Source: Elusimicrobiota bacterium (GTDB lineage Bacteria; Elusimicrobiota; Elusimicrobia; Elusimicrobiales; UBA9959). From it: a stretch of DNA of 64,000 bases. Positions 7,971-41,417 of this stretch are shown here, piece after piece. Each line of letters starts with the position of its first letter. Position 1 is the first letter of the stretch. Position numbers and translations under genes: made by a program. The notes under the pieces are model-generated. The model was given only the letters and a program-made list of their open reading frames with translations. It had not been told where the DNA came from and ran no database searches. The stretch is taken from assembly GCA_027340875.1 (NCBI GenBank), contig DAIENX010000002.1, forward strand, positions 1 to 64,000. The letters are read 5' to 3'.

Positions 7971-7990
7971 GGCCTTGCAGGAAGGCGGAT

Positions 7991-9231: not shown

Positions 9232-9273
9232 TGACATAACCATGACAATCATCCGGACGGCAATTTGTATATT
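9232..9273 (+). promoter_or_regulatory. hem operon promoter with TGACA-N6-TGACA direct repeat (OmpR/PhoB-type, HemR-like box) and -10-like TATATT
   Basis: TGACA at 9232 and 9243 (11-bp period); TATATT at 9268-9273, 6 nt before ATG 9280. Confidence 0.65.
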
Positions 9274-9279
9274 TTAACC

Positions 9280-12868: not shown

Positions 12869-12881
12869 GACAGGAGAGACC

Positions 12882-15172: not shown

Positions 15173-15174
15173 TC

Positions 15175-16937: not shown

Positions 16938-16938
16938 T

Positions 16939-18354: not shown

Positions 18355-18356
18355 AA

Positions 18357-19325
18357 ATGAGCAAGAGGGGGGTGCTGCTGCTCAATTTCGGCGGCCCTGG
18401 CTTCCTCCGGGAAGTGCGGCCTTTCCTGTACCGCCTGTTCTGCGACCCATACGTGCTTTCCGGTATTCCCGCCCCTTTCAGGCAGGTTATGGCCGCCGTC
18501 ATAGCGGCGGCGAGGGCCCCCGAGTCCTCCCGCTGCTACGCGGCCATAGGCGGCGGCTCGCCGCAGCTCCACTGGACCAAAGTGCAAGCGGAGGGCCTGG
18601 AGCGTCTCCTCAACGCCGGGAGGGCGGCTGGGGACGAGTTCAAGGTCTCGGTGGGCATGCGCTCCTGGGAGCCGGACATCCGCTCCGGCCTCGGGGAGCT
18701 CAGGTCCTGGGGCGCGGAGGAGCTGACGCTGCTGCCGCTTTACCCGCAGTATTCCTTCACTACTACGCGCTCCTCGCTGGAGGAGGCCAGGCGCCAGCTG
18801 GGGAGGATGGGATGGAAGCCTGCGCTGTCGGAGGTGGCGGGCTGGCCGGATGATCCGGGCTACATAACGCTGTCGCGCTCGCTGCTGGAGGACACGCTCA
18901 GGCAGGCGGCTTCGGCCGGCGCGGAGCCGCATGTCATCTTCTCGGCGCATTCGCTGCCGCTCAAGACGGTGGAGCGCGGGGACCCTTACCGCGGCGAGGT
19001 GGAGCGCACCGTGGCCGCGCTGTCCCGCGGCCTTTCGGTCCCCTGGTCGCTCGCCTTCCAGTCCAGGGCCGGGAGCATGCGCTGGCTGGAACCGTATCTC
19101 GAGGACGAGCTGCCGCGGTTGGCCGCGGCCGGAGCCAGGGACCTGGTGGTCTGTCCGGTCAGCTTCGTCAGCGACCACATAGAGACGCTTTGGGAGCTGG
19201 ACATGCTTTACTCCGGGAAGGCCGCGGAGCTGGGCTTCAGGTCCTACCGGCGGGTGCCGGTGTTCAACGGCGACGAGAGGTTCTTTTCGGTGCTCAAAGA
19301 GGTAATGAATGATAGGAAAGCTTGA
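18357..19325 (+). CDS. hemH: Ferrochelatase
   Basis: GVLLLNFGGP, IGGGSP, PLYPQYS, FSAHSLP, FVSDHIETLWELD; start placed at ATG 18357. Confidence 0.93.
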   Translation: MSKRGVLLLNFGGPGFLREVRPFLYRLFCDPYVLSGIPAPFRQVMAAVIAAARAPESSRCYAAIGGGSPQLHWTKVQAEGLERLLNAGRAAGDEFKVSVGMRSWEPDIRSGLGELRSWGAEELTLLPLYPQYSFTTTRSSLEEARRQLGRMGWKPALSEVAGWPDDPGYITLSRSLLEDTLRQAASAGAEPHVIFSAHSLPLKTVERGDPYRGEVERTVAALSRGLSVPWSLAFQSRAGSMRWLEPYLEDELPRLAAAGARDLVVCPVSFVSDHIETLWELDMLYSGKAAELGFRSYRRVPVFNGDERFFSVLKEVMNDRKA

Positions 19326-20631
19326 TACTTCCAGCAGGGAAGCGGCCGTGATAGGTGCCGGGGTCTCCGGCCTGCTCGCGGCCTATCACCTGCACCGCCG
19401 CGGCTACCGCGTGGAGCTGTTCGAGGCCGCCCCGCGCTCCGGCGGCATGATACAGACGGTGAAAACGCCCTACGGCATAGCCGAGAGCGCGGCTCACTCC
19501 TTCCTGGTCAGCAGGCCGGTGAAGGAGTTCTTCGAAGAGGTCGGCGTTAAGCTGGCCCCGCTGAACCCGGACTCCAAAGCCCGCTTCATCTTCAGGGGTG
19601 GCAAGCCGCGCAAGGTCCCTCTCACGGTTTTCGAGGGGGCGGCGGCGGTGCGCCGCGCGCTGTTCGCCGGCCGCCATCTCCCGAAGGGGCTTTCCTACGA
19701 GGACATGAGCGTGGAGGAGTGGGGAGAGCTCTTCCTCGGCCGTCCCGCGGTGGACTACCTGCTCTCGCCTTTCGTGCTGGGCGTCTACGGCTCCTTGCCG
19801 TCGCAGCTCTCGGTGCAGGCAGCCTTCCCGTCGCTGCCAGCGCCGGAGGGCCGCCCGCTGCTGGGGTCCCTGCTGGCGAAACGCAAGCTGAAGAAGCCCG
19901 GGGCCGCCGCGGAGCCTCCCGGCCCGAAGCACCGCACCACGATGATGAGCCCGCTGGGCGGCATAGGCTCGCTGACGCAGAGGCTCGACGAGATACTTAC
20001 CGCGGAGCTGGGGGCGCGCTTCCACAAGAACTGCCCGGTGGACAAGCTGCCGGACGTCCCCAACCTGCTCGTCTGCACCGATCCGCGTTCCGCCGGCCGC
20101 CTGCTGAGGAAGGAAAGTTCGGAGCTGGCGGAGAAGCTGGAGGCCGCGGAGTTCAGCAGCATAGTGAGCGTCACCGCGGTCCTCGACCGCGCGAAGTTCC
20201 GCCGCCCCGTGAAAGGCGTGGGCGTGCTGGTGCCTCCGGTAGAGAAAGGTCCCTGCCTTGGCATACTTTTCAATTCCAGCTCCTTCAAGGGGCGGGTGCT
20301 GGACGAGGGACGCCACGCCTCTTTCACAGTGATGCTGGGCGGCGCCGTGGACCCCGGCTTCGTCGGCGCTTCCGACGCGGCGGTGCGCGAGGCCGTGATG
20401 CGCAGCGCGCGCCAGCTGCTCGGTTATGAAGGGGAGCCGGTACATTTGCAGGTGTTCCGCTGGGAGCGGGCCATACCCGTCTACAGCCCGGCCCTGCTCA
20501 AGACCTGGAAGCTCGCGGAGCGCACCTGGTGCTCCGCGCCCGGCAGGGTGCTCTTCGGCAACTACAGCGCGCAGGTCAGCCTGCGCGGCCTGGTGGAGGG
20601 CAGCCGGGAACTGCCGCCCCCGCTGCCCTGA
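19309..20631 (+). CDS. hemY: FAD-dependent protoporphyrinogen oxidase (HemY/HemG type)
   Basis: VIGAGVSGL FAD motif; GG-I-T; RWERAIPVY; GNY; last gene of the hem operon. Confidence 0.82.
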   Translation: MIGKLDTSSREAAVIGAGVSGLLAAYHLHRRGYRVELFEAAPRSGGMIQTVKTPYGIAESAAHSFLVSRPVKEFFEEVGVKLAPLNPDSKARFIFRGGKPRKVPLTVFEGAAAVRRALFAGRHLPKGLSYEDMSVEEWGELFLGRPAVDYLLSPFVLGVYGSLPSQLSVQAAFPSLPAPEGRPLLGSLLAKRKLKKPGAAAEPPGPKHRTTMMSPLGGIGSLTQRLDEILTAELGARFHKNCPVDKLPDVPNLLVCTDPRSAGRLLRKESSELAEKLEAAEFSSIVSVTAVLDRAKFRRPVKGVGVLVPPVEKGPCLGILFNSSSFKGRVLDEGRHASFTVMLGGAVDPGFVGASDAAVREAVMRSARQLLGYEGEPVHLQVFRWERAIPVYSPALLKTWKLAERTWCSAPGRVLFGNYSAQVSLRGLVEGSRELPPPLP

Positions 20632-26249: not shown

Positions 26250-26963
26250 TCAGGCCTTGAGCAGCGGGAGCACGGCCTTCTCCAGGTCGCGCGCGAAGGC
26301 GGTGTTCAGCAGGTCGGCCGGCCTGCCGAGGGCCGTTTCCAACCCGTCGTCGAACCGGATGCCCGGGGAGGAGCCGGCGCGGCCGGAGCGGCCGCGCATG
26401 TTCTCCACCACGCCCAGCAGCGGTACCCCCAGCCTGCGGTAGAGCTCCAGCGAGCGCTCCAATACCGACCTGGCCATAACCGACGGGGTCGTCACCGCCA
26501 GCACCTCGGCCTTGGGCAGCAGCCTTATGGCGTCGAGCGCGGTGTCGTTTATGCCGGGGGGCATGTCCACCACCAGGAAATCAAGGTCGCCCCACAGGGT
26601 GACCGCCAGCATCTCCACCACCGCGCCGGAGATATCGGCGCCGCGCAGCGGCACCGCCCTGCCCGAAGAGAAGAAAGAGACCGACATGAACCTTACGCCG
26701 GACACCTCCGGCGGAAGAAGGCCCATCTCCTCCTCCGGGTAGGCGCCGTCGGCGCCCAGGGCCACGTGGGCTGACGCCCCGCAGAAGTCCAGGTCGGCCA
26801 GACCGGTCCTGTAGCCTTTCTTCGCCAGCAGCAGGGCCAGCGTGGAGGCCGTGACGCTCTTGCCTATGCCGCCTTTCCAGCCGGTGACGGCGATGACGCG
26901 CTTCACCCTGGCCAGCCTGTCTCCTATGACCGAGGGCCTCGGGTCTATCCTCGTCGGGGTCAT
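26250..26963 (-). CDS. hypB: Mrp/MinD-family ATPase; probable ATPase-type HypB nickel-insertion protein
   Basis: IDPR N-terminus; deviant Walker A KGGIGKS; DLDFCGAS; PLRG; WGDLDFLVVDMPPG; VVENM; overlaps the hypA stop; start placed at MTPTRIDPR. Confidence 0.75.
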   Translation of the reverse strand: MTPTRIDPRPSVIGDRLARVKRVIAVTGWKGGIGKSVTASTLALLLAKKGYRTGLADLDFCGASAHVALGADGAYPEEEMGLLPPEVSGVRFMSVSFFSSGRAVPLRGADISGAVVEMLAVTLWGDLDFLVVDMPPGINDTALDAIRLLPKAEVLAVTTPSVMARSVLERSLELYRRLGVPLLGVVENMRGRSGRAGSSPGIRFDDGLETALGRPADLLNTAFARDLEKAVLPLLKA

Positions 26964-27361
26964 TTTTCCCCCTTGAGGTATTTGATGTAGACGCCGCGGC
27001 CCGACTTCACCTCGAAGTCGGGGCTCGCGCAGGCGGGGCAGGCCAGGAAGGCGTGAGCGAGCTCCGGTATGAAATGGATGTTCTCGCCTTCCTCGTCGGT
27101 CTTCTTCAGGTGCTCCAGCGTGAAGTCCTTGCCGCAGGCGCGGCACCCGAAGGCGGCGGCTTCCTCTATGAGCTTGAAGCTGCAGGCGGGCGGCGGCGTG
27201 TCCTTGAGCAGCTCGCGCAGCGCCGTGGAGAAGATGTCCCTGTCTATGGCCTGCAGTTCGCCCAGCACCACGCCTATCTCCGAGAGTCTGCGGATCTTCT
27301 CCGAGGCCGCGTGCTTGTTAGCGGATTTTACCACCGATTCGGCTAGAGCCCATTCGTGCAT
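26960..27361 (-). CDS. hypA: Hydrogenase nickel metallochaperone HypA
   Basis: MHE Ni-binding N-terminus; GEL; two CxxC motifs; IHFIPELAHAFLACPAC insert. Confidence 0.92.
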   Translation of the reverse strand: MHEWALAESVVKSANKHAASEKIRRLSEIGVVLGELQAIDRDIFSTALRELLKDTPPPACSFKLIEEAAAFGCRACGKDFTLEHLKKTDEEGENIHFIPELAHAFLACPACASPDFEVKSGRGVYIKYLKGEK

Positions 27362-27362
27362 A

Positions 27363-28541
27363 TCAGCGTCCTATGTCCGTGGGCGCGCGGCCCAGGGAGT
27401 TCAGCAGCTTCACAACGGCCTGGATGCGGGAAGGCACGTCGTCCTCCACGCCGGCCCGGCCGGGGTAGATCTCGTACTGCCTGCGGTACTTCACCGGGGT
27501 CACGTTGATCATCAGGGAGTTCGCGCCGGCCATCAGCCCTTCCCTGGCGCCGTTGTCCTTGTCGAGCGTCTCGAGCGCGGTGGTGACCAGGATGTTGGCC
27601 TCCGGGTTCATCAGCCGGGCTCGTGCTATGGTGTCCAGCATGGAGCCCAGCGGCGGCAACTTCTCCGCGGAAAGCGGCGTCTCGGGGTGCGGGATGAACG
27701 GGCCGAAAGAGAACATCTCCGCGCCCAGCTCGGCGGTGAGCCGGATGTTCCTGAAGGTGTCGCGGTTGGAGCCGCCCGGCAGGCCGGCGAGGAAGCCCGT
27801 GATGATCATGTAGCCGAGTTCCCGGACGCCGCGTATCAGTTCCAGCCGCGCGTCCAGAGAAGCGCCGGGCTTCATGCGGCCGAACAGGTCCGGGTTCGAG
27901 GTCTCGAAGCGCATAAGTACGCCGCGGGCGCCGGCCTTGTAGAGCGCGGCGTAGGTGGAAAGCGGGCGCGGGCCGATGCTGACTATCAGCAGCACCGGGC
28001 AGCGCTTAAGGATGCCCGAGACTATGCGGGCGAGCTTCGCCTCGTCGTACCAGGGGTCCTCGCCGGACTGGAGCACCAGGGCCTTGAACCCCAGCTCCTT
28101 CACGGCGTATTCCACCGCGTCGAGGATCTCGTCCTCGGTCATGCGGTAGCGGCCGACGGCGGAGTTGTCGCGGCGCAGGCCGCAGTAGAGGCAGTTGGCC
28201 GCGCAATGGCTGGAGAACTCGAGGATGCCGTGCACGCAGCAGGAGTTGCCGAGCTTCTTCTGCCGTACGGCGTTGGCGCGCTCGTGGAGCGTGCGCGGCG
28301 CGGCGGCCAGCTTCCTGTCGGTGTCGCGCAGGCGGAAGAAGAGCCGGCGCCACTCGGCCATGATCTCCATGGCCTCGTCCTCCGGCACGGTCTGGATCAC
28401 GAAACCGCCCTGCGCGTAGACGTAGTCGCCTACCGAGACGCTGGCCAGGCCCGTGTGCGCCTTCTTGGTCTCGTCGAAGTACTCTATGGTGGCGGCGAAG
28501 CCTTCTAGCTTTACCACCTTGCCGGGTATGGCGTAGCACAT
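27363..28541 (-). CDS. Fusion: N-terminal HypC/HupF domain + HydE-like radical SAM domain
   Basis: MCYAIPGKVV...VGDYVYAQGGF...EDEA (HypC); GILEFSSHCAANCLYCGLRRDN..RYRM, LQSGED, RFET, GPFIPHPETPL, GANSLM..YEIY (HydE-like). Confidence 0.85.
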   Translation of the reverse strand: MCYAIPGKVVKLEGFAATIEYFDETKKAHTGLASVSVGDYVYAQGGFVIQTVPEDEAMEIMAEWRRLFFRLRDTDRKLAAAPRTLHERANAVRQKKLGNSCCVHGILEFSSHCAANCLYCGLRRDNSAVGRYRMTEDEILDAVEYAVKELGFKALVLQSGEDPWYDEAKLARIVSGILKRCPVLLIVSIGPRPLSTYAALYKAGARGVLMRFETSNPDLFGRMKPGASLDARLELIRGVRELGYMIITGFLAGLPGGSNRDTFRNIRLTAELGAEMFSFGPFIPHPETPLSAEKLPPLGSMLDTIARARLMNPEANILVTTALETLDKDNGAREGLMAGANSLMINVTPVKYRRQYEIYPGRAGVEDDVPSRIQAVVKLLNSLGRAPTDIGR

Positions 28542-28550
28542 GGCGAGCTC

Positions 28551-29927
28551 CTAGAAGTAGAGGTCCCTGCGGCCCCTGGCTATCTGGGCGAGGCGCCTGC
28601 CGGCCTCTTCCCTCAGGGCCAGGTTCTCGATGCCGCCTACGCATCTGCGGATGAGCTCCCTGCCCTTCCGGCGCAGCCCGGCGTCGCCGAAGTCGCTCAG
28701 GTACTCGGCGAAGGTCAGGGCGGCGTTCAGGTCGCAGAACTTGTGGATGTGGCCGGGCTTGGAGAGCTCCATGAATCGCTCTCCGGTGCGGCCGCTGCGG
28801 TAGCAGGCCGTGCAGAAGCTGGGTATCAGGTCGCTCTCGGCCGCGGCGCGCACCACCTCGCGCAGCGGGCGGGCGTCGTGGATGTCGAACTGAGGCTGCC
28901 TGGCGCCGCTGCAGTAGCCGCCGGTCACCGGCACGGAGCCGGCGGAAGCCTGCGAGACGCCGATGTCGAAGGCCCTGCGGCGGATCTCGGGACTTTCCCG
29001 GGTGGACAGGATGATGCCGGCGTAGGGCATGGCCAGCCGGAGTATGGCTATCAGCTTCAGGAAGTCGGCGTCGCTGACGGGATGGGCCGGCTTGTAGCTG
29101 ACCGAGGGGGCCTCGCGCAGCCTTGGCACGGAGATGGTGTGGGGGCCGACGTTGTGCACTGCCTCCAGGTTCCTCGCGTGCGCGGCCAGGCCCAGCAGCT
29201 CGAAGCGCCAGTCGTAGAGCCCGAACAGGACCCCCAGGCCGACGTCGTCTATGCCGCCCTCGAAGGCTCGGCCCGGAGCCCCGAGCTGCCGCTCATAGTC
29301 CGCTTTGGGGCCGGTGTGCAGGCTCTCGTAGGTGGGGCGGTGATAGGTCTCCTGGAAAAGCTGGTAGGTGCCGATGCCGGCCTCCTTGAGCTTTCTGTAG
29401 TTCTCTGGTGTGGTGGCGGCGATGTTGACGTTGACCCTGCGGATGTTGCCCTTCGGGACCTTCACCGAGTAGATCCTCTTTATCACGCTTACGATGTAGT
29501 CTATCGTGTTGCGGGACGGGTCCTCGCCGGCCTCGAGCAGGATGCGTTTGTGGCCCTGGCCTATCAGGAACCTGGTCTCCCTCTCCACCTCGGCCAGCGT
29601 CAGCTTGCGCCTGCTCATGCTCCTATTGGCGGAGCGGAAGTTGCAGTAGCAGCACTCGTTGACGCAGTGGTCGGAGACGTAGAGCGGCGCGAACAGGACC
29701 AGCCTGCGCCCGTATATCTCGCGCTTTACTTCGGAGGCGGCGCGGAACAGCCGCTCGGTCAGCGCGGTATCGGTGACGTGCACCAGCCTGGCGACGTCGG
29801 CCAGGGCGAGGCCTTTCTTCTTCCGCGCCTTCTCTATTATCGCGGCGATCTCGCCGTTCGACGGGTTCTTGGCCCTGTCGAGCATGTCCTGCAGGAAGCC
29901 GGTCCTCAGCGATAGCGGCACGGTCAT
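28551..29927 (-). CDS. hydG: HydG-type tyrosine-lyase radical SAM protein ([FeFe]-hydrogenase maturase family)
   Basis: FAPLYVSDHCVNECCYC; IRRVNVN; YQLFQETYH; GPHTISVPR; C-terminal CX2CX22C (CTAC...KFC). Confidence 0.88.
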   Translation of the reverse strand: MTVPLSLRTGFLQDMLDRAKNPSNGEIAAIIEKARKKKGLALADVARLVHVTDTALTERLFRAASEVKREIYGRRLVLFAPLYVSDHCVNECCYCNFRSANRSMSRRKLTLAEVERETRFLIGQGHKRILLEAGEDPSRNTIDYIVSVIKRIYSVKVPKGNIRRVNVNIAATTPENYRKLKEAGIGTYQLFQETYHRPTYESLHTGPKADYERQLGAPGRAFEGGIDDVGLGVLFGLYDWRFELLGLAAHARNLEAVHNVGPHTISVPRLREAPSVSYKPAHPVSDADFLKLIAILRLAMPYAGIILSTRESPEIRRRAFDIGVSQASAGSVPVTGGYCSGARQPQFDIHDARPLREVVRAAAESDLIPSFCTACYRSGRTGERFMELSKPGHIHKFCDLNAALTFAEYLSDFGDAGLRRKGRELIRRCVGGIENLALREEAGRRLAQIARGRRDLYF

Positions 29928-29984: not shown

Positions 29985-30473
29985 TCAACGGGGCCCGAAT
30001 TCCAGCAGGCAGCCCAGTATCAGCCGCGCGGAGCTCTCTACTTCCCGCGACAGGCCGGCGCCGTAGGCGGTGTTCTTGGGCTGTATGCCCAGAAACACGG
30101 TGCGGGCGCTGGTGTCCTCGCCTATTATCCCGGCGACTACGCTCAGCGGTATGGAATGGGTGGAGAGGGTGCCTTCTCCGATGTGTTCCGGAGCTATGAC
30201 GCGCACCTCGCCCGGGCTGCCGCCGAAATCCGCCGCGTCGATGAATATCACCTTCGCCGGCTTCAGCCCGGCGGCCTTGTCGACCACGCTCTCCGGCCTA
30301 TCGAAGGCGTTGATGAGTCTGAAGCCCAGCTCCCGGCCCAGCAGGCGGCCGCCGATGAACGGCCCCACCCCGTCGTCGCCCCTGAACGGGTTGCCGACCG
30401 TTATCACGAGGGTGTCGCCGCCCTCGCAGGGGGCCAGCGCCTGCCTGGCTTCAGCGGTTAACGTAGGTGACAT
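29985..30473 (-). CDS. Hydrogenase maturation endopeptidase (HycI/HybD family)
   Basis: VGNPFRGDDGVG, FIDAADFG..PG, STH, LGIQP. Confidence 0.9.
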   Translation of the reverse strand: MSPTLTAEARQALAPCEGGDTLVITVGNPFRGDDGVGPFIGGRLLGRELGFRLINAFDRPESVVDKAAGLKPAKVIFIDAADFGGSPGEVRVIAPEHIGEGTLSTHSIPLSVVAGIIGEDTSARTVFLGIQPKNTAYGAGLSREVESSARLILGCLLEFGPR

Positions 30474-31779
30474 TGAGCATATGCGTCGAGCAGGAGATGC
30501 AGGGGTCGTAGGCCCTTACCAGCATCTCGAGCGCGAGCGTTATCTCCTCTTCGGTCTTGTGCAGTATCTCCGGCAGCAGTTTCTTCATGTCGTGCTGGAT
30601 ATTGTTGATGTTCTGGTTCGTCGGGATGATGCAGTTGGCGTTGACTATGGCGCCCTTGGCGTCCGTCTGGTAGTTGTGGAACAGCGTCCCGCGCGGCACC
30701 TCCACGGCGCCCACGCCGTCCCCGGCGCGGAGCGGGACCTTGCCCTGTTCGTTCACCCCGACCAGCACCTGCTCGTCGTAGTTGATCCCGCGCTTGCGCA
30801 GGTCGTTCAGGATGGCGATCGCGTCCTCCAGGCAGTGCACGCACTCCACCAGCTGGGCGGCGGTGTTGAGGTAGGGGTTGCGGCAGACGGGTTTCAGGCC
30901 TATCCGCTCGGCCACGGCCTTGGCGTCCGGGTGCAGCTTGGCGGAGTTGAGATTGAAGCGGGCCAGCGCGCCTACCGCGTAGGACTCGCGGCTGAGCTTC
31001 GTGAACTTGGCGGAGGAGCGCGGGTCCACGAACTCGTTGGTGACCTTCCTGTACTCCTTCTTGCTCATCCGCACGCCGTCCGTGGAGCCGATGTCCCCCT
31101 CCAGGAACGGGTACTCGGGGCCGTCGTTGACCATGGCCACGTACTCGGTGTCGCGCTCGAACTCCGGGAACTTGAAGCCGGCGGCCAGGTCCACGGTCAC
31201 GGCCATGTCCGCGCGCATGCCGCGCAGGATGTTCAGCATGCGGTCTATGTCGTGCTCGGAGGGCAGCTTGGTGAAGCCTCCGGCGACGCAGGAGATCGGG
31301 TGCACATGGCGGCCGACCAGGATCTCGCAGAGGTCGTTGCAGTCCTTCTTCATGCGCAGTGCCCGCCTGACCACCTTGTTGTGCGTGGCCACCAGCGGCA
31401 CGAAGCTCTTGACCCCCAGCATGTCCGGGGCTACCAGCAGGTAGATGTGCAGGATATGGCTGTCCAGCGTCTCGAAGTGCATCAGCAGCTTGCGCAGCTT
31501 CAGGGTCTGGTCGGTGGGGGCTATCCCGAGGGCGTCCTCGGCGGCCTGTATGGAGGCCAGCGAATGGCCGCACGAGCAGATGCCGCAGATGCGGCTGGTG
31601 ATGTGCTGCGCCTCGAACACCGAGCGGCCGCGCAGCATGCCCTCGAAGAAGCGCGGGGCCTCGACGACGTTGAACTCGCATTTCTCTATGCGGCCCTCCC
31701 TGACGTTGACCACGATGTTGCCGTGGCCCTCGACGCGGGTGACGTATTCGCTCTTGATGTCTACGTTCTTGTTAGCCAT
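30451..31779 (-). CDS. Group 3b [NiFe]-hydrogenase large (alpha) subunit
   Basis: TRVEGHG; PRFFEG; L1 SRICGIC; EVPRG; L2 RAYDPCISCSTH plus short cleavable tail; start placed at MANKNV. Confidence 0.93.
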   Translation of the reverse strand: MANKNVDIKSEYVTRVEGHGNIVVNVREGRIEKCEFNVVEAPRFFEGMLRGRSVFEAQHITSRICGICSCGHSLASIQAAEDALGIAPTDQTLKLRKLLMHFETLDSHILHIYLLVAPDMLGVKSFVPLVATHNKVVRRALRMKKDCNDLCEILVGRHVHPISCVAGGFTKLPSEHDIDRMLNILRGMRADMAVTVDLAAGFKFPEFERDTEYVAMVNDGPEYPFLEGDIGSTDGVRMSKKEYRKVTNEFVDPRSSAKFTKLSRESYAVGALARFNLNSAKLHPDAKAVAERIGLKPVCRNPYLNTAAQLVECVHCLEDAIAILNDLRKRGINYDEQVLVGVNEQGKVPLRAGDGVGAVEVPRGTLFHNYQTDAKGAIVNANCIIPTNQNINNIQHDMKKLLPEILHKTEEEITLALEMLVRAYDPCISCSTHMLNVTYVNR

Positions 31780-32522
31780 TATTTCTTTCCTTCCCTGCAC
31801 TTGTTGTACATGTCCATCTTCGCGGCTATCATCGCGGGGGTCACGTTGTACTTGGCCATCACGTCCTTGGCGGCGTTCTCGCGCGGGTTGCTGATCATGC
31901 CGCGGCAGCCGTAGCAGACGTTGTTGTTGTTGACGCACCAGGAATTGCAGCCCGCCCTGGTGACCGGGCCCATGCAGGTCACGCCGCGCTCGTACATGCA
32001 GACGTTCTCGTTGAACTTGCACTCCACGCAGACCGGGTGGTCCGGCACGGTATAGGGCATCCCCTTCAGGATGTGCTTGAGGACCTCCACCAGCTCGGGG
32101 ATGTAGGCCGGGCAGTTGTTGATGGTGTAGTCCACCTTGACCACCTGGTGCAGCGGCCTGGTCTTGGCGGTGGGGAAGCTCTTGTGGTCGGCGCCGTAGA
32201 CGTACTTGCCTATCTCCTCCAGGTCGAACGAGTTCTTCATCCCGTTCACGCCGCCGGTGGCGGCGCAGGCGCCGAAGGCCACCAGGACCTTGGCCCTCTC
32301 CCGGATCTTCTTGAGCCGTTCCGCGGAGTGGTCGTCGGTGACGCTGCCCTCCACGAACGCTACGTCGTACTTCCATTCCCACTTCTCGGACATGACCTCG
32401 CGGAACTCCACTACGTCCACCAGCTCGAGCACGTCGAGCAGGGTCTCGCCCATGTTGGCGAGCTGCAATTGGCAGCCCTCGCAGCAGGACAGATCGAAGA
32501 AAGCGACTTTAGGTTTTGACAT
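31779..32522 (-). CDS. Group 3b [NiFe]-hydrogenase small (delta) subunit
   Basis: SCCEGCQ, VEGSV, GACAATGG, NCP, VCVECK, CMGPVTRAGC, CYGCRG. Confidence 0.92.
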   Translation of the reverse strand: MSKPKVAFFDLSCCEGCQLQLANMGETLLDVLELVDVVEFREVMSEKWEWKYDVAFVEGSVTDDHSAERLKKIRERAKVLVAFGACAATGGVNGMKNSFDLEEIGKYVYGADHKSFPTAKTRPLHQVVKVDYTINNCPAYIPELVEVLKHILKGMPYTVPDHPVCVECKFNENVCMYERGVTCMGPVTRAGCNSWCVNNNNVCYGCRGMISNPRENAAKDVMAKYNVTPAMIAAKMDMYNKCREGKK

Positions 32523-32536
32523 GGCGGTCCTCCGGG

Positions 32537-33379
32537 TCACATCTTGGCTACGTTCTTTATCCTGTCGTAGCTGAACACCGGCCCGTCCTGGCAGCAGTAG
32601 TAGTTGTCGATGCTGTCGATCTGGCAGTGCCCGCACTTCCCCATGCCGCATTTCATGTGCCGCTCCAGGGAGAGGATGATGTTGCGCTCGGCTATCTTCT
32701 TCTTCAGCAGCTCGGAGATCACGAACTTGTACATGACAGGGGGGCCTACCACCACGGCGAAGGTCCTCTCCGGGTTGATCGTGACGCCCGGGATGATGGA
32801 GGTTATCAGGCCGATGTTGCCGGCCCAGTCCGGGCTGCCCTTGTCCACGGTCACGTTGAAGTTGACGTCCACCCGCTTCTGCCAGAACTCCAGGTCGTCG
32901 GCGAAGAGCATCTCGCTGGGGTTGCGGCAGCCCAGCAGGATGTCCACCTTGCCGAACTCGCGCCGGTTGTCGATCACGTAGTTTATCAGCGAGCGCAGCG
33001 GCGCTATGCCGAGGCCGCCCGCCACGAAGATCAGGTCGTTGCCGGCCAGCACCTTGACCGGGAAGCCCTTGCCGAACGGGCCGCGGATGCCGATCTCGTC
33101 GCCGGCCTCGAGGGCGTGCATAGCGTTGGTGACCCGGCCGGCCGCGCGCACGCAGAGCTCGAAGGAGCCGCGCTTGGTGGGGGAGGAGCAGAGCGAGATA
33201 GGGGCCTCGCCCACGCCGAAGACCGAGACCTGGACGAACTGGCCTGGCTCGTAGTCCATCGCGCGGCCGTTGTCCAGCTCTATCTCGAAGAGCTTCTCCG
33301 AGGGGGTCATCCGCTTGACGCGGATGATGCGGCCTTTCCTGACGCGCCAGTTAGAGTTGACGAGCTCTTCCTTTATCAT
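32537..33379 (-). CDS. Sulfhydrogenase gamma subunit (FAD/NAD(P)-binding, [2Fe-2S])
   Basis: PGQFVQV..GVGEAPIS, RGPFGKGF, AGGLGIAPLRS, GPPVM, ERHMKCGMGKCGHC, CQDGPVF. Confidence 0.92.
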   Translation of the reverse strand: MIKEELVNSNWRVRKGRIIRVKRMTPSEKLFEIELDNGRAMDYEPGQFVQVSVFGVGEAPISLCSSPTKRGSFELCVRAAGRVTNAMHALEAGDEIGIRGPFGKGFPVKVLAGNDLIFVAGGLGIAPLRSLINYVIDNRREFGKVDILLGCRNPSEMLFADDLEFWQKRVDVNFNVTVDKGSPDWAGNIGLITSIIPGVTINPERTFAVVVGPPVMYKFVISELLKKKIAERNIILSLERHMKCGMGKCGHCQIDSIDNYYCCQDGPVFSYDRIKNVAKM

Positions 33380-34422
33380 GCGGCCTCCTTTACCAGTGCT
33401 GTAAGCGTTTCCTTGAGCCGGATGCCCGCCATGCAGGTCCGGGTGCACCTGCCGCAGCCGGTGCAGAAGAAGCGGTAGTACTTGCCGAGCGAGAAGCGGA
33501 ACTTGCGGTAATGGCGGTGCCGCAGGCGCTCGGCCTGGCCGCTGCGGAAATTCTCGCCGCCGGCCACCTTGGCGAAGGTCTCGACCTCGCAGGAATCCCA
33601 GGTCCGGACGCGCTTGCCGCTCTTCAGGTCCAGGTTCAGCGTGTCGGCTATGTCGAAGCAGTAGCAGGTGGGGCAGACGTTGGTGCAGTTGCCGCAGCCC
33701 AGGCATTTGTCCCCGATGGCCTTCCAGACCGGGCTGTTCTCGCTCTTGTCGAAGATGGCCGGGAGCTTCTTGCGGTCGACGTTCACCTCGTCCTTGAAGC
33801 GGGAGCGCTTGGCGTCCCTGATGGCGTAGAGCGCCTCCATCTGGGCCTGCGTGGCGGGCTTGAACAGGTTGCTGCTGTCCACCAGGTCGTCGCCGGCCTG
33901 GGTGTTCACGTGCGCCATGAAGACCTCTCCCATGTCGGTGAAGAACAGGTCGTAGCCGCCGTTGGGGAAGTTCGAGTTCATCAGGTTGCAGCTGGCGTGC
34001 TCGTCGCAGTACTCGGTGCACTCCAGGCCGATGACGGTTATGTTGTCCTTGCGGCGCAGGTAGTTGTAGTCGCGCGGTCTTTCGGAGAAGACGATGTTCA
34101 GGCACTGGATGCCGTTCAGGTCGCAGGTGTGGACTCCGAAGATGACGGTGTTCTCGTGCTCGAGCAGGGCCTCGGCGTTCTCCACGTGGCCGGTGCTGAA
34201 GCTCAGCATCGTCTCCTTCTGCGGCAGGAAGTACTTCTTGGGGGGCAGTATCGTGGGTATGTGCTTGAGGGCTATGTCGTTAGCGGAGGTGACCTCCGTG
34301 AAGGCGTAGTTGCCGTAGCCCTTGCTGACCGGCGCCACCACCTTGTGATTGCGCGAGAGCTTCACGATGAAGCTGTTAAGGTCGTCTTTTCTGAGGATGA
34401 AGTACCGCGTGTGCGTTCCCAT
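33376..34422 (-). CDS. Sulfhydrogenase beta subunit (4Fe-4S dicluster, AsrA-like)
   Basis: PPKKYFLP, FGVHTCD, CLGCGNCTNVCPTCYC, WDSC, CTGCGRCTRTC; GGAGG RBS before MGTHT. Confidence 0.9.
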   Translation of the reverse strand: MGTHTRYFILRKDDLNSFIVKLSRNHKVVAPVSKGYGNYAFTEVTSANDIALKHIPTILPPKKYFLPQKETMLSFSTGHVENAEALLEHENTVIFGVHTCDLNGIQCLNIVFSERPRDYNYLRRKDNITVIGLECTEYCDEHASCNLMNSNFPNGGYDLFFTDMGEVFMAHVNTQAGDDLVDSSNLFKPATQAQMEALYAIRDAKRSRFKDEVNVDRKKLPAIFDKSENSPVWKAIGDKCLGCGNCTNVCPTCYCFDIADTLNLDLKSGKRVRTWDSCEVETFAKVAGGENFRSGQAERLRHRHYRKFRFSLGKYYRFFCTGCGRCTRTCMAGIRLKETLTALVKEAA

Positions 34423-34483
34423 AAGATGCCTCCGTGGCCGGGGCCCCGGCCTGGGACTTTCCGTCGGAAAATCCTCTATATTT

Positions 34484-34512
34484 ATTGTGCAACATGGGGG
34501 GGCCGCTGTAAA
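34484..34512 (-). promoter_or_regulatory. Putative sigma70 promoter of the hydrogenase operon
   Basis: Minus strand TTTACA-17 nt-CACAAT in an AT-richer patch about 60 nt upstream of the beta subunit start. Confidence 0.35.
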
Positions 34513-34715
34513 CAAGAACGGTCAACAGCGGGATTGAATTTAGTCAGGTCCCGGGGGGGAGTATGGTCAAGCCGCGCCCTGCCTTCGCCTGGCGCGCTGA
34601 CGGCAAGGATATCCGCTTTCGGTCCCCCCGGTCCGGTCCCCAGATAACTGGATTTGTACGATATTTGGCCTGCCCGGGCAAGTAGCCTGTCGCGGTTATT
34701 CTATAATAGTCAGGT

Positions 34716-36496: not shown

Positions 36497-37663
36497 ATGG
36501 CGACGAAAAGACAAGGCCCCGCATGCGTGGTCTGGGAGCTGACGCTGGCCTGCAACCTCAAATGCCTGCATTGCGGCTCCACCGCGGGAGGGCGCCGCGA
36601 GGCCGAGCTTTCCACGGCCGAGGCGCTCGAGCTCTGTTCCGGCCTTAAGGAGGCCGGCTGCGGCGGCGTGGCCCTTATGGGCGGCGAGCCGCTGTTGAGG
36701 AAGGATTTCCCGGCCATCGCATCCAGGGTGAGGGAGCTGGGCATGGAGCTCTCCGTCATCACCAACGGCACGGTGCGGCCTGACGGGATATTTACCCTGC
36801 TGAAGAGCCTGGGCCCCAGGGCCGTGGCCATAAGCCTGGACGCGGCCGGCCCGGAGCTGCACGACCGGATACGCGGGGTCCCGGGCGCGTTCGCCAAGGC
36901 CTCTTCGTTCATCGAAGACGCGCTGAAAGCCGGCCTGCCGGTCAGCGTTATCACCACGGTGCATAAACTCAACATCTCCGAGCTTCCCGGGCTGCGCGAT
37001 ATAATAAAAGGAAGGGGGATAGCCTGGCAGGTGCAGACCGCCGGCGCGGAAGGCGGCCGTTTCTCGCGCGACCTGCTGCTGGACCAGGAGGAGTTCTATT
37101 CCGTCGGGATGTTCGTGGAATCCTGCCGCCGCGAATATTCCCCGGAGGAGCTCCCGGTCATAGGCGCCCATGACCTCGGCTACCATTCCCTGCTGCTGAA
37201 GAACGTCTCGCTCTACGAGAAATGGGAGGGCTGTCAGGCCGGCGTCTCGGTGGCCGGCATACGCAGCGACGGCGGCGTGCTCGGTTGCCTGGCGGTCAAC
37301 GACGACCGCTTCGTGGAAGGCAGCGTGCGCAGGGAGCCGTTCCAGGCCATCTGGAGCCGGCCCGGCGCGTTCTCCTACGCGAGGGATTTTTCGCCCGGGA
37401 AGCTGGGGGAGAACTGTGCCGGCTGCGGTCACGCCGAGACCTGCCGCGGCGGCTGCAGCGAGATGTCGCTGATGAAGACGGGCCGTCCGCACAACGATCC
37501 CTATTGCTTCCGCGCCATAGAGGACAGGCTGTTCTTCAAAGGTCCCGGAGGGGCCGTCAGGAAGCTCGGCGCCTCTATCGCCGCCGGCCGCGGACGTGCG
37601 CCGTTCGGCCGGCTCGGCCGGATATTCTCGGGGAAAAGGGGGGAGGCCGGTGGAGACAGATAA
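36497..37663 (+). CDS. Radical SAM protein with SPASM domain
   Basis: VWELTLACNLKCLHC; GGEP; SPASM CQAG...GVLGC...CAGCGHAETCRGGC...DPYC. Confidence 0.9.
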   Translation: MATKRQGPACVVWELTLACNLKCLHCGSTAGGRREAELSTAEALELCSGLKEAGCGGVALMGGEPLLRKDFPAIASRVRELGMELSVITNGTVRPDGIFTLLKSLGPRAVAISLDAAGPELHDRIRGVPGAFAKASSFIEDALKAGLPVSVITTVHKLNISELPGLRDIIKGRGIAWQVQTAGAEGGRFSRDLLLDQEEFYSVGMFVESCRREYSPEELPVIGAHDLGYHSLLLKNVSLYEKWEGCQAGVSVAGIRSDGGVLGCLAVNDDRFVEGSVRREPFQAIWSRPGAFSYARDFSPGKLGENCAGCGHAETCRGGCSEMSLMKTGRPHNDPYCFRAIEDRLFFKGPGGAVRKLGASIAAGRGRAPFGRLGRIFSGKRGEAGGDR

Positions 37664-38630
37664 GGGCATACGCCTGAACCTGGGCTGCGGATATAACAGG
37701 CTCGAGGGCTGGCTTAACGCCGACGCCAGTCCGTACTCCGCGGCGGACCGCGTGATGGAGGCCCAGGACCTGGAGTTCGGGGCCTCGTCCGTGGAGGAGG
37801 TGAAGGCCCTGCAGCTCGTGGAGCATCTGGGCTTCTTCAGGACCAAGTATTTCCTGTCGGAATGCTGGCGGGTGCTGAAGCCCGGCGGCCGGCTGACGAT
37901 AGAGACCCCGGACGTCGACGCGGCCTTCAGGGCCTATCTCGCGGGCGGTCACTCCGAGAAGGAGTCAGCGCTGGGCTGGATATTCGGTCCGGAGAGCCCG
38001 GGCATGCATCACCTCTACTGTTTCCCGCGGGAACTGCTGGCCGAGCTGCTCGCGGAGGCCGGCTTCTCCGTGGAAAAGCAGGAGGGCTTCCTGTTCCAGC
38101 CGTCCCGGCCGGCGCTGAGGTTCTCGGCCGTCAAGAAGGAAGGAGAGAAGGCTGCCCTTAATTCCGCCCTGCGCCGCCGCCTGCTGGACAGGGGGTTGGC
38201 CGCGTTCACGCGGGAGGAGGAGAGCGCGGGGCTGGAGCTGGCGGTGCGGAGGCTGGTGGCCGGCGGCGGGAATTCCGCGGCGGAGCTGGAGCAGGCCCTG
38301 ATCAGCGCCCCGGCGGCCCTGGAGTATTTCGCGCTGGTGGAGGAGAACGAGCCGCGTCCGTCGCGCGAGGCGGCGGCCTGCGGCAGGCTGGCTTCCTGGT
38401 CGGCGCAGGGCAGGCTGGCGGCCGCGTTCCTGGAAGGGCTGCGCGGCGGGCTGGACGAGAACGCGGCGTTCTCGGCGGCGGAGTCGCTGGGCCGGCGCCT
38501 GCTCGCGGCCCCCCTGGAGGGCGGCGTCGAGCCGCCCGGGCCAAGGCCCCTGAACGGCGCCCCGGCGGCGTTCACTTTCGGCGCCGTTTCCGCCTGGGCT
38601 TTCCGCGAGAAGGCAGGCGGCAGGCGCTGA
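37650..38630 (+). CDS. Class I SAM-dependent methyltransferase domain with helical C-terminal extension
   Basis: RLNLGCG..GWLNAD; LVEHL; ECWRVLKPGG..IETPD; GTG start after GGAGG overlapping the rSAM stop. Confidence 0.8.
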   Translation: METDKGIRLNLGCGYNRLEGWLNADASPYSAADRVMEAQDLEFGASSVEEVKALQLVEHLGFFRTKYFLSECWRVLKPGGRLTIETPDVDAAFRAYLAGGHSEKESALGWIFGPESPGMHHLYCFPRELLAELLAEAGFSVEKQEGFLFQPSRPALRFSAVKKEGEKAALNSALRRRLLDRGLAAFTREEESAGLELAVRRLVAGGGNSAAELEQALISAPAALEYFALVEENEPRPSREAAACGRLASWSAQGRLAAAFLEGLRGGLDENAAFSAAESLGRRLLAAPLEGGVEPPGPRPLNGAPAAFTFGAVSAWAFREKAGGRR

Positions 38631-38695
38631 GGCGGTTCCCCGCTGGAGAGAAAATTAATAGAATTCTGTCGTATCCTGGAGGTGGAGAGGTGAAT

Positions 38696-39004
38696 ATGAA
38701 GAAACTTTTAGAGCTGGGCGCGAAGACGGGCCTGACCAAGGCCGAAGTGAACCGTGTGGCGAGGTTCGGGCTGCTGGGCCTGCTGGCCGTGGGCCTGGCC
38801 GGCATAGCGGGCTGCTTCAGGGCTCAGAAAGCGGAGGCGCCGCAGAGCGCCGATAAACCGGGCACTCTGCAGGATATAGTCAGCTCGGTGAACAAGAGCA
38901 CCGGCGCCGCGCAGGGCCAGGACAACTGCGGTCCTTACCCGGGCTACCCCTGCGGCACCCGGTATTACACGGTGAGCGTTTCGGATTTCCGGCGGTCAGC
39001 CTGA
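38696..39004 (+). CDS. Small putative lipoprotein with Cys/Tyr/Pro-rich C-terminal motif
   Basis: Strong RBS; hydrophobic segment ending IAGC; C-terminal CGPYPGYPCGTRYY. Confidence 0.65.
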   Translation: MKKLLELGAKTGLTKAEVNRVARFGLLGLLAVGLAGIAGCFRAQKAEAPQSADKPGTLQDIVSSVNKSTGAAQGQDNCGPYPGYPCGTRYYTVSVSDFRRSA

Positions 39005-39933
39005 TGAGGGCCTGGCTGCTTTCCGTTCTTTTCCTGCTCCCGTCGGCGGCGGGCGCTTTCGACTGCCCGGCCGCCGGGGAGAAGCCGGAAGACTGCCCGT
39101 GGGCAGGGGTCGCCAGGCTGGCGGCCGGCGGAGCGGATATCGCGAAGACCCTCCGGGAGCATGCGCCGGGCCTGCTGGCCCAGGTGGACGCCGACAAGGC
39201 CAACGGCCGCCTGCTCGGTCTCTGGGGGGAGAGCATCAACTACGACGAGCTGGCCGAAGGCCAGATCGTAGACCCCGGCATACTTGCTTTCATAGCCGCG
39301 CGCCTGGGCGCCCCCGCGCCGGACGGCAGGATCATGCACGCCGGAGCGGAGCACACCTACGGCTATCTTTTCAGTCTCCTGCCGACGAAGTTCGGCTTTA
39401 AAAGGGCGCGCTGGGTCCGGCCTGACATCGAGGACGGCCTGGGGCTGCCTCGCGGCACGGCGGGACCTTCTCCGTCGTCCGGCACGCTGCTCTCCAACGT
39501 GACCTGCATAGCCGGCGGCATAGCCCTCCGGGACGACCCGCGAGCCTTCGCCTCGCTCAGGGAGGCCGGCGCTTCCTGCGCCCCCGCGGCGCGGCGCTTC
39601 ATCGAGGCCGGGGCCGGGCGCGTCAGGCTCACTGAGGACGTCGGTCTGCCAGGCGGCAGGACGGTCTCGCTGCGCACCGATTTCGTCCGTTTCGCGAAGA
39701 GCTCCGGCACCAACTCGCGCCTGCTGATCTACTCCGTCAAGGATTCCGCCGCGGCCCATGCCTACCTGGTCACGGCCTTCCCCGTAAGCGAGGAATTCGA
39801 GGAGAAGGCCACCGCCCGTTCCGGCCTGGGGACCGATAAGCCGGTGCAGACCCGCTACAACGCCTTCGTCCGCGGCCTGACCGGCGCCGGCAGGTTCAAG
39901 GGCCGGCGAAGCGCGGCTAAACTGGAAAAATGA
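39004..39933 (+). CDS. Secreted hypothetical protein
   Basis: Signal peptide (AGA-F); HAG.EHTYGYLFS motif; translationally coupled on both sides. Confidence 0.7.
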   Translation: MRAWLLSVLFLLPSAAGAFDCPAAGEKPEDCPWAGVARLAAGGADIAKTLREHAPGLLAQVDADKANGRLLGLWGESINYDELAEGQIVDPGILAFIAARLGAPAPDGRIMHAGAEHTYGYLFSLLPTKFGFKRARWVRPDIEDGLGLPRGTAGPSPSSGTLLSNVTCIAGGIALRDDPRAFASLREAGASCAPAARRFIEAGAGRVRLTEDVGLPGGRTVSLRTDFVRFAKSSGTNSRLLIYSVKDSAAAHAYLVTAFPVSEEFEEKATARSGLGTDKPVQTRYNAFVRGLTGAGRFKGRRSAAKLEK

Positions 39934-41417
39934 GGGGACTGCTTCTTCTGCCGCTGCTGGCCGCCCTGTCCGGGTGCGGCGGCTTCTATTCGGTCAGGGT
40001 GCCTTACCGCCTGCCGGCCAGCCCCGCGGCCGTTTCCGCCAGGCCGGCTTTGGGAGCGCTCTATCTGGTGCTGGTCCCTCCCGAAGGGGCGGCGGACAGG
40101 GAGCCCGGCCTTGCCGGCCTGCTCGGCAGACAGGGCCCTGACATGGACCTGCCTGCCCTCGCCGGGGCAGCGGCCGCCGCCATCAGGACCCCTTCGGTAA
40201 AGGTCTGCGCCTGGAACGTGGAAAGGGCCAGCGCATCGGCCGGCGCCTTCGCCTCCCGGTTCAGTCCCACCGGCCTGCTGGAGATATCGCTCTCGAGGCC
40301 GTCCATTTCCTCCGGGAAGGAGGAAAGGAGAGTGACCGTGACGGAGAAGGGGAAGAGCCGTCAGGTCAAGAGCAAGGTCTGGGTGTATACCGCCGTAGTC
40401 GGAGCGGACGTGAGGCTGTTGTCCTGGCCGGACCGGCGGCAGCTGGACAGCTGGTCGGATTCCGAGACGGTGTCCGAGGAGCGGGTGGACGATTCCCGCG
40501 ATCCGGAGGACTGGTATTCCGGGTGGGAGGACCGGCTTTTCAAGGAGCTGGCCGGTAAAGTCGCCGCCAGGTACTCCGGGCGTACCGTGTTCAGGTCGCG
40601 CCCCCTGTTCGCCAAGAACAAGGACAAACTTTCGGAGAAGGCCCTGGCGCTGGCGCGCTCCGGGGACTGGAGCGGCGCCGCGGCCATCTGGCGCGAAAGA
40701 GCCGCCGCCGGCGGCGGCTGGCGCGACTATCTCGGCCTGGCGGTGGCGTCCGAGCTTTCCGGGGACCTTCCTGCCGCCCGCGGCTATTACGACCGCGCCA
40801 GGGCCGCCTCGGGCGGGGGAAAGGCCGCGTCCTCGGTGCGCTGGGAAGAAATATTCGGCGACATCGATTACGCCTCCTCGGCCCCGCCGGAGCGCGCCTG
40901 CGACGATTCCTGGTTCGGGGTGAAGACCGTCCTGCTGCCGTTCTCCGACGAGACCAACAGCGTGGACGGTCCGCCGCTGGTCAGGCAGCTGGTCTACGAC
41001 CGGCTGAGGGAGGCCGGCTACGACCTGGTGCCGCTGGAGGCCGCGGACGAGGCCCTCAGGCGCCGCGGCTACAGCGACGGAGGCCAGCTGGCGGCCGCCA
41101 GGCCGGAGGAGATCGCTGCCTGGCTGGGCGCCGGCCGCCTGATATACTGCGATATCAGCGACTATGGCGAGGTCATAGCCGGCGTATACAACAGGCGCAT
41201 GATAGCCGGCACGGCCAGGATATGGGAGAAAGGGGCGCCGGAAGTCTCCATCCGGGAAAGCGTGATAAAGATAAGCACGCAGAAGAGCCTGCTCGGCGGC
41301 CTCGCCTCACAGCTGGCCAGGGGACTGATGGAGAGGATCGGGAACAAGCCGTTGGGCCTTGAGGCGGGTCTTTTCGCCAGGCAGCTGTCATCCGACCTGC
41401 CGGCCATGTCCAGATAG
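39930..41417 (+). CDS. Lipoprotein with TPR-like segment and C-terminal GNA1162/DUF799-like domain
   Basis: Lipobox LSGC; GDWSGAAAIW...YLGLAVASE (TPR-like); VLLPFSDETNSVDGP. Confidence 0.55.
   Translation: MRGLLLLPLLAALSGCGGFYSVRVPYRLPASPAAVSARPALGALYLVLVPPEGAADREPGLAGLLGRQGPDMDLPALAGAAAAAIRTPSVKVCAWNVERASASAGAFASRFSPTGLLEISLSRPSISSGKEERRVTVTEKGKSRQVKSKVWVYTAVVGADVRLLSWPDRRQLDSWSDSETVSEERVDDSRDPEDWYSGWEDRLFKELAGKVAARYSGRTVFRSRPLFAKNKDKLSEKALALARSGDWSGAAAIWRERAAAGGGWRDYLGLAVASELSGDLPAARGYYDRARAASGGGKAASSVRWEEIFGDIDYASSAPPERACDDSWFGVKTVLLPFSDETNSVDGPPLVRQLVYDRLREAGYDLVPLEAADEALRRRGYSDGGQLAAARPEEIAAWLGAGRLIYCDISDYGEVIAGVYNRRMIAGTARIWEKGAPEVSIRESVIKISTQKSLLGGLASQLARGLMERIGNKPLGLEAGLFARQLSSDLPAMSR

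Follow-up and report, generated by a model that had tools for sequence, protein, structure and literature searches.

The Fe(CN)2CO unit of [NiFe] hydrogenases is made by HypC, HypD, HypE and HypF (HypCDEF), a machinery that the accessible part of PMC9431212 regards as universal. For HydG, the radical-SAM tyrosine lyase of [FeFe] hydrogenase H-cluster assembly, the accessible part of PMC8162317 describes two iron complexes derived from two tyrosines: Fe(CO)(CN), termed complex A, and Fe(CO)2(CN)(Cys), termed complex B; it also describes a conserved residue, His265 of the Thermoanaerobacter italicus enzyme, that holds a fifth, 'dangler' iron, and gives ThiH only the tyrosine-lyase step in common with HydG. 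In HydE of Thermotoga maritima (TmHydE), two methionines hold Fe(CO)2(CN)S intermediates, according to the accessible part of PMC11826987. Here we analyse a gene for a HydG-type enzyme at positions 28551–29927 (minus strand) of a 64,000-nucleotide stretch of DNA (the window: positions 1 to 64,000 of contig DAIENX010000002.1, Elusimicrobiota bacterium assembly GCA_027340875.1). The gene lies inside a [NiFe] hydrogenase operon, directly beside a gene that encodes HypC fused to a HydE-type domain. From the genes present and absent, this HydG and the HypC–HydE fusion probably replace HypCDEF in making the Fe–CO/CN unit of [NiFe] hydrogenases.

The locus resembles each of the closest described systems and differs from each. 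With T. italicus HydG (4WCX, TIGR03955) the window protein shares homology over its full length, the same radical-SAM and CX2CX22C motifs and the dangler-iron histidine; unlike in the H-cluster system, its genome is without HydA and HydF, the gene is part of a [NiFe] operon, its HydE partner is fused to HypC and it belongs to a fusion-linked clade of 44 sequences. As in the canonical HypA–F systems of Escherichia coli and Thermococcus kodakarensis, there is a HypC with an N-terminal cysteine, a HypA, an ATPase-type HypB, a HycI-type protease and a large subunit with standard motifs, but HypD, HypE and HypF are not found, HypC occurs only as the radical-SAM fusion and Gln44 takes the position of a histidine. 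The fusion keeps the fold, the radical-SAM cysteines and the equivalents of M224 and M291 of T. maritima HydE (3CIX/7O1O), whereas it falls under the TIGR03956 cut-off, has HypC and a long helix as its N terminus, carries C-C-x-H for [IV]-[HLYF]-x-R and Arg for K309, and has no C-terminal auxiliary-cluster cysteines. ThiH (TIGR02351, 7PD1) has the tyrosine-lyase radical-SAM core in common with the window protein but no C-terminal cluster domain, and the window protein stays under the ThiH cut-off.

A search of the full-text literature, with subscription journals and supplements outside its scope, found no paper proposing that HydG or HydE acts in [NiFe] maturation. The fusion is mentioned in passing in one preprint, and the accessible parts of PMC11216029 and PMC7325909 have no bearing on the question. 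As far as the searched literature reaches, the maturation system is not in print.

The window gene encodes HydG, not ThiH

The open reading frame (ORF) of 458 residues scores 513.5 bits against TIGR03955 (rSAM_HydG; E 4.1e-154, cut-off 312.15), matching positions 30–470 of the 470-position profile. Against the ThiH model TIGR02351 it reaches 272.7 bits (cut-off 380), with residues 27–369 covered. The comparison with known structures divides in the same manner: T. italicus HydG (4WCX) spans residues 14–458 of the window protein, end to end, at 502.9 bits, and the ThiH structure 7PD1 aligns with residues 39–359 alone at 178.5 bits. The GVGPHTISVPRLR block is identical between 4WCX and the window HydG, and the spacing of the C-terminal cysteines is equal.

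The initial annotation had called this gene HydG and not ThiH on the strength of three motifs and a lack of thiamine genes nearby, and had proposed the comparison of hidden Markov model scores given above; its call and the observations behind it are borne out. The radical-SAM CX3CX2C motif (the annotation's CxxxCxxC) is formed by C88, C92 and C95 (CVNECCYC, window positions 29643–29666). The GPHTISVPR block, residues 261–269 (29121–29147), is identical in 4WCX and carries His263, which by alignment of this block equals His265 of T. italicus HydG, a match of numbering that assumes a 14-residue tag in the deposited chain. The auxiliary-cluster CX2CX22C motif is C372-x2-C375-x22-C398 (residues 372–398, positions 28734–28814), and its cysteines align with those of 4WCX and 4RTB. 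All of these cysteines and His263 are invariant in 33/33 fusion-linked HydGs. The C-terminal cluster domain, about 90 residues long in the window protein, lies outside the ThiH matches.

Family scans found no thiamine genes among the ORFs of the window, in which the only related gene encodes a thiamine-diphosphate-using transketolase (55247–57211). The genuine ThiH of the genome (462 bits) is encoded on another contig (C49), amid thiC, thiD, thiS and thiE. Within the limits of sequence evidence, the model scores, the C-terminal cluster domain and the separate bona fide ThiH operon establish that the ORF at 28551–29927 is HydG rather than ThiH. Its 4WCX match is at least as high as those of [FeFe]-linked HydGs of relatives (482.5, 441.3 and 404.5 bits); nothing suggests altered catalysis, and by sequence the protein is an ordinary member of its family.

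HydG lies in a [NiFe] hydrogenase operon

The operon comprises nine genes, all on the minus strand, in the order beta, gamma, small and large hydrogenase subunits, HycI protease, HydG, HypC–HydE, HypA and ATPase-type HypB. Downstream of the four structural genes of a group 3b hydrogenase, the five genes from HycI to HypB follow with short gaps or overlaps: the gap between hydG and the HypC–HydE gene is 9 nt, and the start of the HypB ATPase gene overlaps the stop of hypA (ATGA). A scan for promoters and terminators found none above shuffled expectation.

The large subunit (442 residues, 30451–31779) is of group 3b and sulfhydrogenase alpha-like, with RICGIC, VPRG and DPCISCSTH motifs and a C-terminal tail. 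It is followed by a HycI-type maturation endopeptidase (162 residues, 29985–30473; TIGR00072, 97.4 bits, cut-off 47.45). On the other side of hydG lie the HypC–HydE fusion (392 residues, 27363–28541; PF01455, TIGR03956), the nickel metallochaperone HypA (133 residues, 26960–27361; NF003008, 145.8 bits, cut-off 125) and a Mrp/MinD-type ATPase (237 residues, 26250–26963), an archaeal-style, ATPase-type HypB. The ATPase matches the T. kodakarensis Mrp-homolog ATPase 3VX3 (E 1.3e-59), the same ATPase that is present in the HypA complexes 5AUN–5AUQ.

The remaining structural genes encode a sulfhydrogenase beta-like iron–sulfur subunit (379 residues, 33376–34515), a sulfhydrogenase gamma-like FAD/NAD(P) subunit (280 residues, 32537–33379) and the small (delta) subunit, whose longest ORF covers 31779–32651. 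Sulfhydrogenase delta models match the latter from residue 46, and its true start is probably near 32515–32540. NCBIfam names the sulfhydrogenase gamma family 'sulfhyd_HydG', and two unrelated proteins of this operon may both be labelled HydG.

The partner of HydG is a HypC–HydE fusion

Residues 1–63 of the fusion are a HupF/HypC domain that begins Met-Cys2 (PF01455, 50.8 bits) and matches T. kodakarensis HypC (2Z1C, E 5e-7). Residues 84–387 form a HydE-type radical-SAM TIM barrel with C113, C117 and C120, to which T. maritima HydE aligns at 220 bits and 37% identity. The HydE model TIGR03956 gives 224.7 bits, just below its cut-off of 254.6. An AlphaFold2 model built with 33 homologues is confident as a single body (pLDDT 93.7, pTM 0.91), with a beta-barrel at residues 7–52, a long helix at 54–78 ahead of the TIM barrel; in structural comparison it is closest to TmHydE entries (TM 0.82–0.88).

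The methionine pair of TmHydE is kept in the fusion family as M276 (30/33) and M344 (33/33), and the relay lysine K309 is replaced by Arg362 (30/33); TmHydE numbering follows from the alignment, in which deposited-chain positions minus 10 give M224, M291 and K309. C101, C102 and H104 of a Cys-Cys-x-His motif are conserved in 32, 33 and 33 of the 33 family members; at these positions the eight canonical HydEs compared, all from relatives, read [I/V]-[H/L/Y/F]-x-R. No C-terminal auxiliary-cluster cysteines are present in the HydE domain by alignment. In the HypC domain Gln44 is invariant and aligns with what we take to be a conserved histidine of HypC. As a candidate metal-binding site, the Cys-Cys-x-His motif could by analogy act with Cys2 of the HypC domain in the way that the HypD cysteine acts in the HypC–HypD complex.

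A complex prediction for HydG with the fusion gave a score of 0.00 and, made without controls, speaks neither for nor against binding. The fusion belongs to a large family: its best 120 database matches all carry both PF01455 and PF04055, and their source names are '[FeFe] hydrogenase H-cluster radical SAM maturase HydE' or 'biotin synthase'.

No HypD, HypE, HypF or [FeFe] hydrogenase is detected in the genome

The assembly is a metagenome-assembled genome (MAG) of 2.8 Mb in 112 contigs, 92.45% complete with 5.49% contamination. Profile searches of this genome found no H-cluster domain of [FeFe] hydrogenases (PF02906), no match to the HypD model TIGR00075 and no HypC domain outside the fusion, which carries the sole PF01455. 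HydF (best 54.6 bits, cut-off 325.55), HypE (22.9 bits, cut-off 251.6) and HypF (38.1 bits on an acylphosphatase-like stretch, cut-off 466.1) had no match over cut-off. The initial annotation saw the [NiFe] enzyme as the only visible client of HydG, and that holds across the genome at its 92% completeness. The usual setting of HydG, with HydE, HydF and HydA in the same genome, is found neither here nor in the sister genome (G201). The missing HydA and HydF lower the case for an H-cluster maturase, not that for a HydG-type enzyme.

Two [NiFe] hydrogenases are encoded in the genome, the 3b enzyme of the window and a group 3c enzyme linked to Hdr on contig C101 (positions 3020–10183, locus L105), where genes for HdrC-like, HdrA, MvhD, MvhG and MvhA proteins lie with one for a HyaD/HybD-type protease. 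No maturation genes lie beside the 3c locus, and the 3c enzyme would have to rely on the same cassette of HydG and HypC–HydE.

The contig of the cassette (C14) is no compositional outlier: it is the fifth closest of 97 to the tetranucleotide mean of the genome. The sister genome G201 has an identical nine-gene operon, with proteins 93–96% identical (RarA, 94%), and searches for HypD, HypE, HypF, HydA and HydF give the same absences there.

The fusion and HydG stand where HypD stands in relatives

Several lines of evidence from other genomes bear on the proposed exchange of HypCDEF for the cassette. First, we drew 201 genomes evenly from the phylum, with quality figures, and scored [NiFe] large subunits at E ≤ 1e-12. 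A large subunit is present in 77 of the 201; HypD accompanies it in 64, the fusion in 11, both in none and neither in 2. The match to the fusion is single and full in 8 of the 11 and split or weaker in 3. The other ten fusion bearers of the sample are 89–98% complete, and nine of the ten have no H-cluster domain.

Second, the same pattern is seen within families. HypD occurs in 11/11 other genomes of the window's own family, and fusion bearers without HypD include lone exceptions in two families whose remaining sampled members all have HypD (10/10 and 8/8). The fusion with HydG therefore stands where HypD stands elsewhere, separately in at least three families. In the window's family, canonical HydE and HydG are found together in five genomes, exactly the five with HydA.

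Third, in a scan that took a single genome for each species, 178 fusion-encoding stretches were confirmed and 80 loci were kept. By record title, 38 of these are from Omnitrophota, 14 from Planctomycetota and 4 from Elusimicrobiota; about ten further bacterial phyla contribute a few each, and three loci come from archaeal MAGs. The distance between HydG and the fusion is at most 1 kb in 48/80 loci, or in 39/56 of those with at least 1.6 kb on both sides, and a [NiFe] large subunit lies within the locus in 21/80, 16 of these being 3b-like. Among 50 further fusion-bearing genomes, a [NiFe] large subunit scores over cut-off in 49, some of these matches spanning only the N-terminal 69 positions and possibly being group 4-like. 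HypD and HypE each exceed their cut-offs in a single genome (G221 in both cases) and HypF in none, G221 having its C-terminal half. The H-cluster domain is found in 12 of the 50 and absent from 38; HydF exceeds its cut-off in 9, each of which also has HydA.

Five genomes with HydA, HydF and the fusion (G215, G221, G240, G244 and G247; loci L039, L047, L087, L093 and L097) have one HydG each, and in G215 and G221 all four genes fall in a stretch of about 13–14 kb. Because a single HydG is present in all five, these genomes suggest that one HydG product feeds both hydrogenase classes.

Phylogeny of HydG and origin of the operon

A quick maximum-likelihood tree of HydG was built from 96 rows: 52 fusion-adjacent sequences including that of the window, 3 from fusion loci but non-adjacent, 40 sequences labelled canonical, all from the window's own phylum, and the ThiH of this genome as outgroup. 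The tree excludes identical sequences as well as matches with fewer than 300 aligned residues or below 38% identity. The window HydG falls in a clade of 44 with SH-like approximate likelihood ratio test (SH-aLRT) support of 100, and 44/44 members are from fusion loci. The remaining 11 fusion-locus rows scatter through the canonical clades. Among them fall two further rows that bear the label 'canonical' although they are fusion-linked: L086, in which the fusion is cut by the contig end, and L158 (G004), in which it is split.

The scattered sequences come mostly from a second arrangement of the module, in which a fusion of about 430 residues lies upstream of HydG (L069, L084–L088 and L090–L098); this form includes three DPANN-type archaeal MAGs. 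The 44-member clade differs from the 40 rows labelled canonical at five positions (D86, E132, A171, Q214 and L290). We rejected them as a diagnostic signature, because T. italicus HydG, of the [FeFe] type, shares two of the five, E132 and A171, when the alignment is inspected by eye.

The origin of the operon was considered from its neighbours in relatives. The 3b operon of the congener G122 has hycI, an amino-acid transporter gene, ybaB, hypA and the ATPase gene, with no cassette and different flanks; this genome has HypD, HydA and canonical HydE and HydG. A resident operon into which the cassette was inserted is disfavoured: the window large subunit is 68–69% identical to those of three relatives, a flat profile, while RarA falls with distance (87, 74 and 57%), which fits a xenologous operon. 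Because large-subunit identity stays flat while that of RarA drops, the comparison suggests that the whole operon with its cassette arrived by transfer and that hypCDEF was lost afterwards.

A predicted route to the Fe–CO/CN unit

We infer every chemical step of the following route from the gene content and motifs described above. HydG would split tyrosine and load CO and CN− onto the Cys/His-held dangler iron of its C-terminal cluster, yielding a synthon, Fe(CO)x(CN)y(Cys). This would be accepted by the HydE-type barrel of the fusion, which would strip the cysteine from it, like HydE in H-cluster assembly. The mononuclear Fe–CO/CN unit would then be parked on Cys2 of the HypC domain, where the Cys-Cys-x-His motif may help, taking the scaffold role of HypD, and the HypC domain would dock on, or deliver the unit to, the precursors of the group 3b and 3c large subunits. 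Nickel would finally be inserted by HypA and the ATPase-type HypB, and the endopeptidases would trim the C-terminal tail. Cyanide and CO would both come from tyrosine, rather than cyanide from carbamoyl phosphate via HypF and HypE.

Several points weigh against this proposal, the first being that each step of the route is a prediction. The product described for HydG is Fe(CO)2(CN)(Cys), whereas the [NiFe] site has Fe(CN)2(CO); two tyrosines supply two CN− and two CO (accessible part of PMC8162317), and the ligand count must change in a way that the sequences do not disclose. The fused HydE domain keeps both of the TmHydE methionines proposed for dimerising Fe units, which would be needless for a mononuclear product. 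Only 21/80 loci have a large subunit near the cassette, or 8/30 of those that extend for 6 kb or more in each direction; physical linkage to hydrogenase genes is thus not general. G221 carries the fusion plus hypD, hypE and a partial hypF, and two genomes of the phylum sample, G003 (100% complete) and G012 (78% complete), have [NiFe] large subunits and neither HypD nor the fusion. The 50 fusion-bearing genomes were picked from the 80 loci for longer contigs and diversity, non-randomly and without completeness figures, and related genomes are not independent, for which reason we give counts and no test. Finally, in a MAG that is 92% complete, in 112 contigs and with 5.49% contamination, absence is unproven from this genome alone.

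G003 merits a separate remark: it has [NiFe] large-subunit matches, and HypD, the fusion and HydG were not found in it at the thresholds used. A third solution, or a very divergent HypD, is possible in this genome.

As to the ligand count, one could suppose that [NiFe] enzymes served by the cassette carry a non-standard number of CO and CN ligands, which we think improbable. Whether a 3b enzyme is served by the cassette or by HypD, its large subunit has the same RICGIC, VPRG and DPCISCS[T/A]H motifs, and therefore the active-site pocket gives no sign of a different cofactor.

Alternative explanations

The module might supply part of the site only, for instance CO, with cyanide made by an unrecognised enzyme outside the HypE and HypF families. 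The CO source of canonical anaerobic [NiFe] maturation is itself unsettled, and weak AIR-synthase-fold matches to the HypE model occur in 21/50 fusion-bearing genomes. These matches, however, reach only 41–118 bits against a cut-off of 251.6, and HypE is not over cut-off in 49/50 of the genomes, HypF in 50/50, nor either of them in the window's own genome. The known HydG synthon is CO-rich, Fe(CO)2(CN), but HydG makes CN− and CO equally per tyrosine (both from the accessible part of PMC8162317), so that a second source of cyanide is unnecessary. We judge such a division of labour unlikely.

Alternatively, HydG and HypC–HydE could mature another metalloenzyme, a cryptic [FeFe]-like or a novel Fe–CO/CN enzyme, with the [NiFe] hydrogenases served by unknown factors or inactive. 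The cassette lies away from hydrogenase structural genes in most loci, but in the window hydG and the fusion gene stand between the hydrogenase protease gene and hypA. An [FeFe] hydrogenase is present in 12/50 fusion-bearing genomes, yet the H-cluster domain is absent from the other 38 and from 9/10 of the other fusion bearers of the phylum sample, whereas a [NiFe] large subunit is found in 49/50 and in 11/11, respectively. The HydE domain retains the TmHydE methionine pair; the HypC domain fused to it, however, belongs to a family known solely from [NiFe] maturation, and the fusion and HypD were mutually exclusive. Together these observations make a different client quite improbable.

A third alternative is that HypCDEF, or HydA and HydF, are present and were missed by the assembly, HydG being an ordinary [FeFe] maturase that sits in the operon by chance. 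The assembly is 92.45% complete in 112 contigs, and the congener G122 does have HypD, HydA and canonical HydE and HydG. At least five unlinked gene families, however, would all have to be missed; the absences recur in the independently assembled sister genome, in 49/50 further genomes and in the ten other fusion bearers of the phylum sample (for the H-cluster domain, 9/10); and the window HydG belongs to a separate, fully fusion-linked clade, not to the congener's type. We therefore consider missed genes a very unlikely explanation.

That the protein functions as ThiH, making dehydroglycine for thiazole, is hardly conceivable: homology to ThiH extends over its N-terminal 370 residues (272.7 bits; 7PD1, 178.5 bits), but the protein scores below the ThiH and far over the HydG cut-off, carries the C-terminal cluster domain that no ThiH match covers and shares the genome with a true ThiH in the thiamine operon on C49.

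Other features of the window

Outside the hydrogenase operon, a tetrapyrrole biosynthesis cluster on the plus strand (9265–20631) encodes GluTR-like, porphobilinogen deaminase, class-III aminotransferase, uroporphyrinogen decarboxylase, radical-SAM and protoporphyrinogen-oxidase-like proteins, and is broken by a histidine kinase/response regulator pair. At 36497–41417, also on the plus strand, lie genes for a radical-SAM/SPASM enzyme and, after it, ORFs that match no family and a GNA1162-like lipoprotein. A 1784-residue ORF on the minus strand (47514–52868) resembles coding sequence in its composition (GC3 0.91), and at E ≤ 1e-6 no Pfam family matches it. The plus-strand dnaE gene for DNA polymerase III alpha (58068–61580) contains one in-frame TAA at 60132–60134 (...GTMV*QEQVMEIA...), after which the frame is unchanged; the TAA may have arisen in sequencing or assembly, or else this essential gene truly carries a nonsense codon.

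Implications

Taken across genomes, the distribution of the cassette makes it likely that many uncultured anaerobes, from twelve or more bacterial phyla and in part from archaea of the DPANN type, assemble the Fe–CO/CN unit of [NiFe] hydrogenases without HypD, HypE and HypF, by a radical-SAM route fed by tyrosine. The HydG synthon would then be a common precursor of the [FeFe] and [NiFe] cofactors, and the fused HydE domain the branch point between them.

If this is true, the textbook account of [NiFe] maturation, in which HypCDEF is universal, would be revised by a second, radical-SAM route, tyrosine would be an explicit anaerobic source of the CO ligand, and two hydrogenase classes that are regarded as unrelated would have connected maturation systems. 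It would explain the 'orphan [FeFe] maturases' in hundreds of MAGs from Omnitrophota, Planctomycetota, Elusimicrobiota and other phyla, where current annotations mislabel such genes HydE, HydG or biotin synthase and the genes are mistaken for signs of [FeFe] hydrogenase. It would also offer a two-gene cassette for the heterologous production of [NiFe] hydrogenases.

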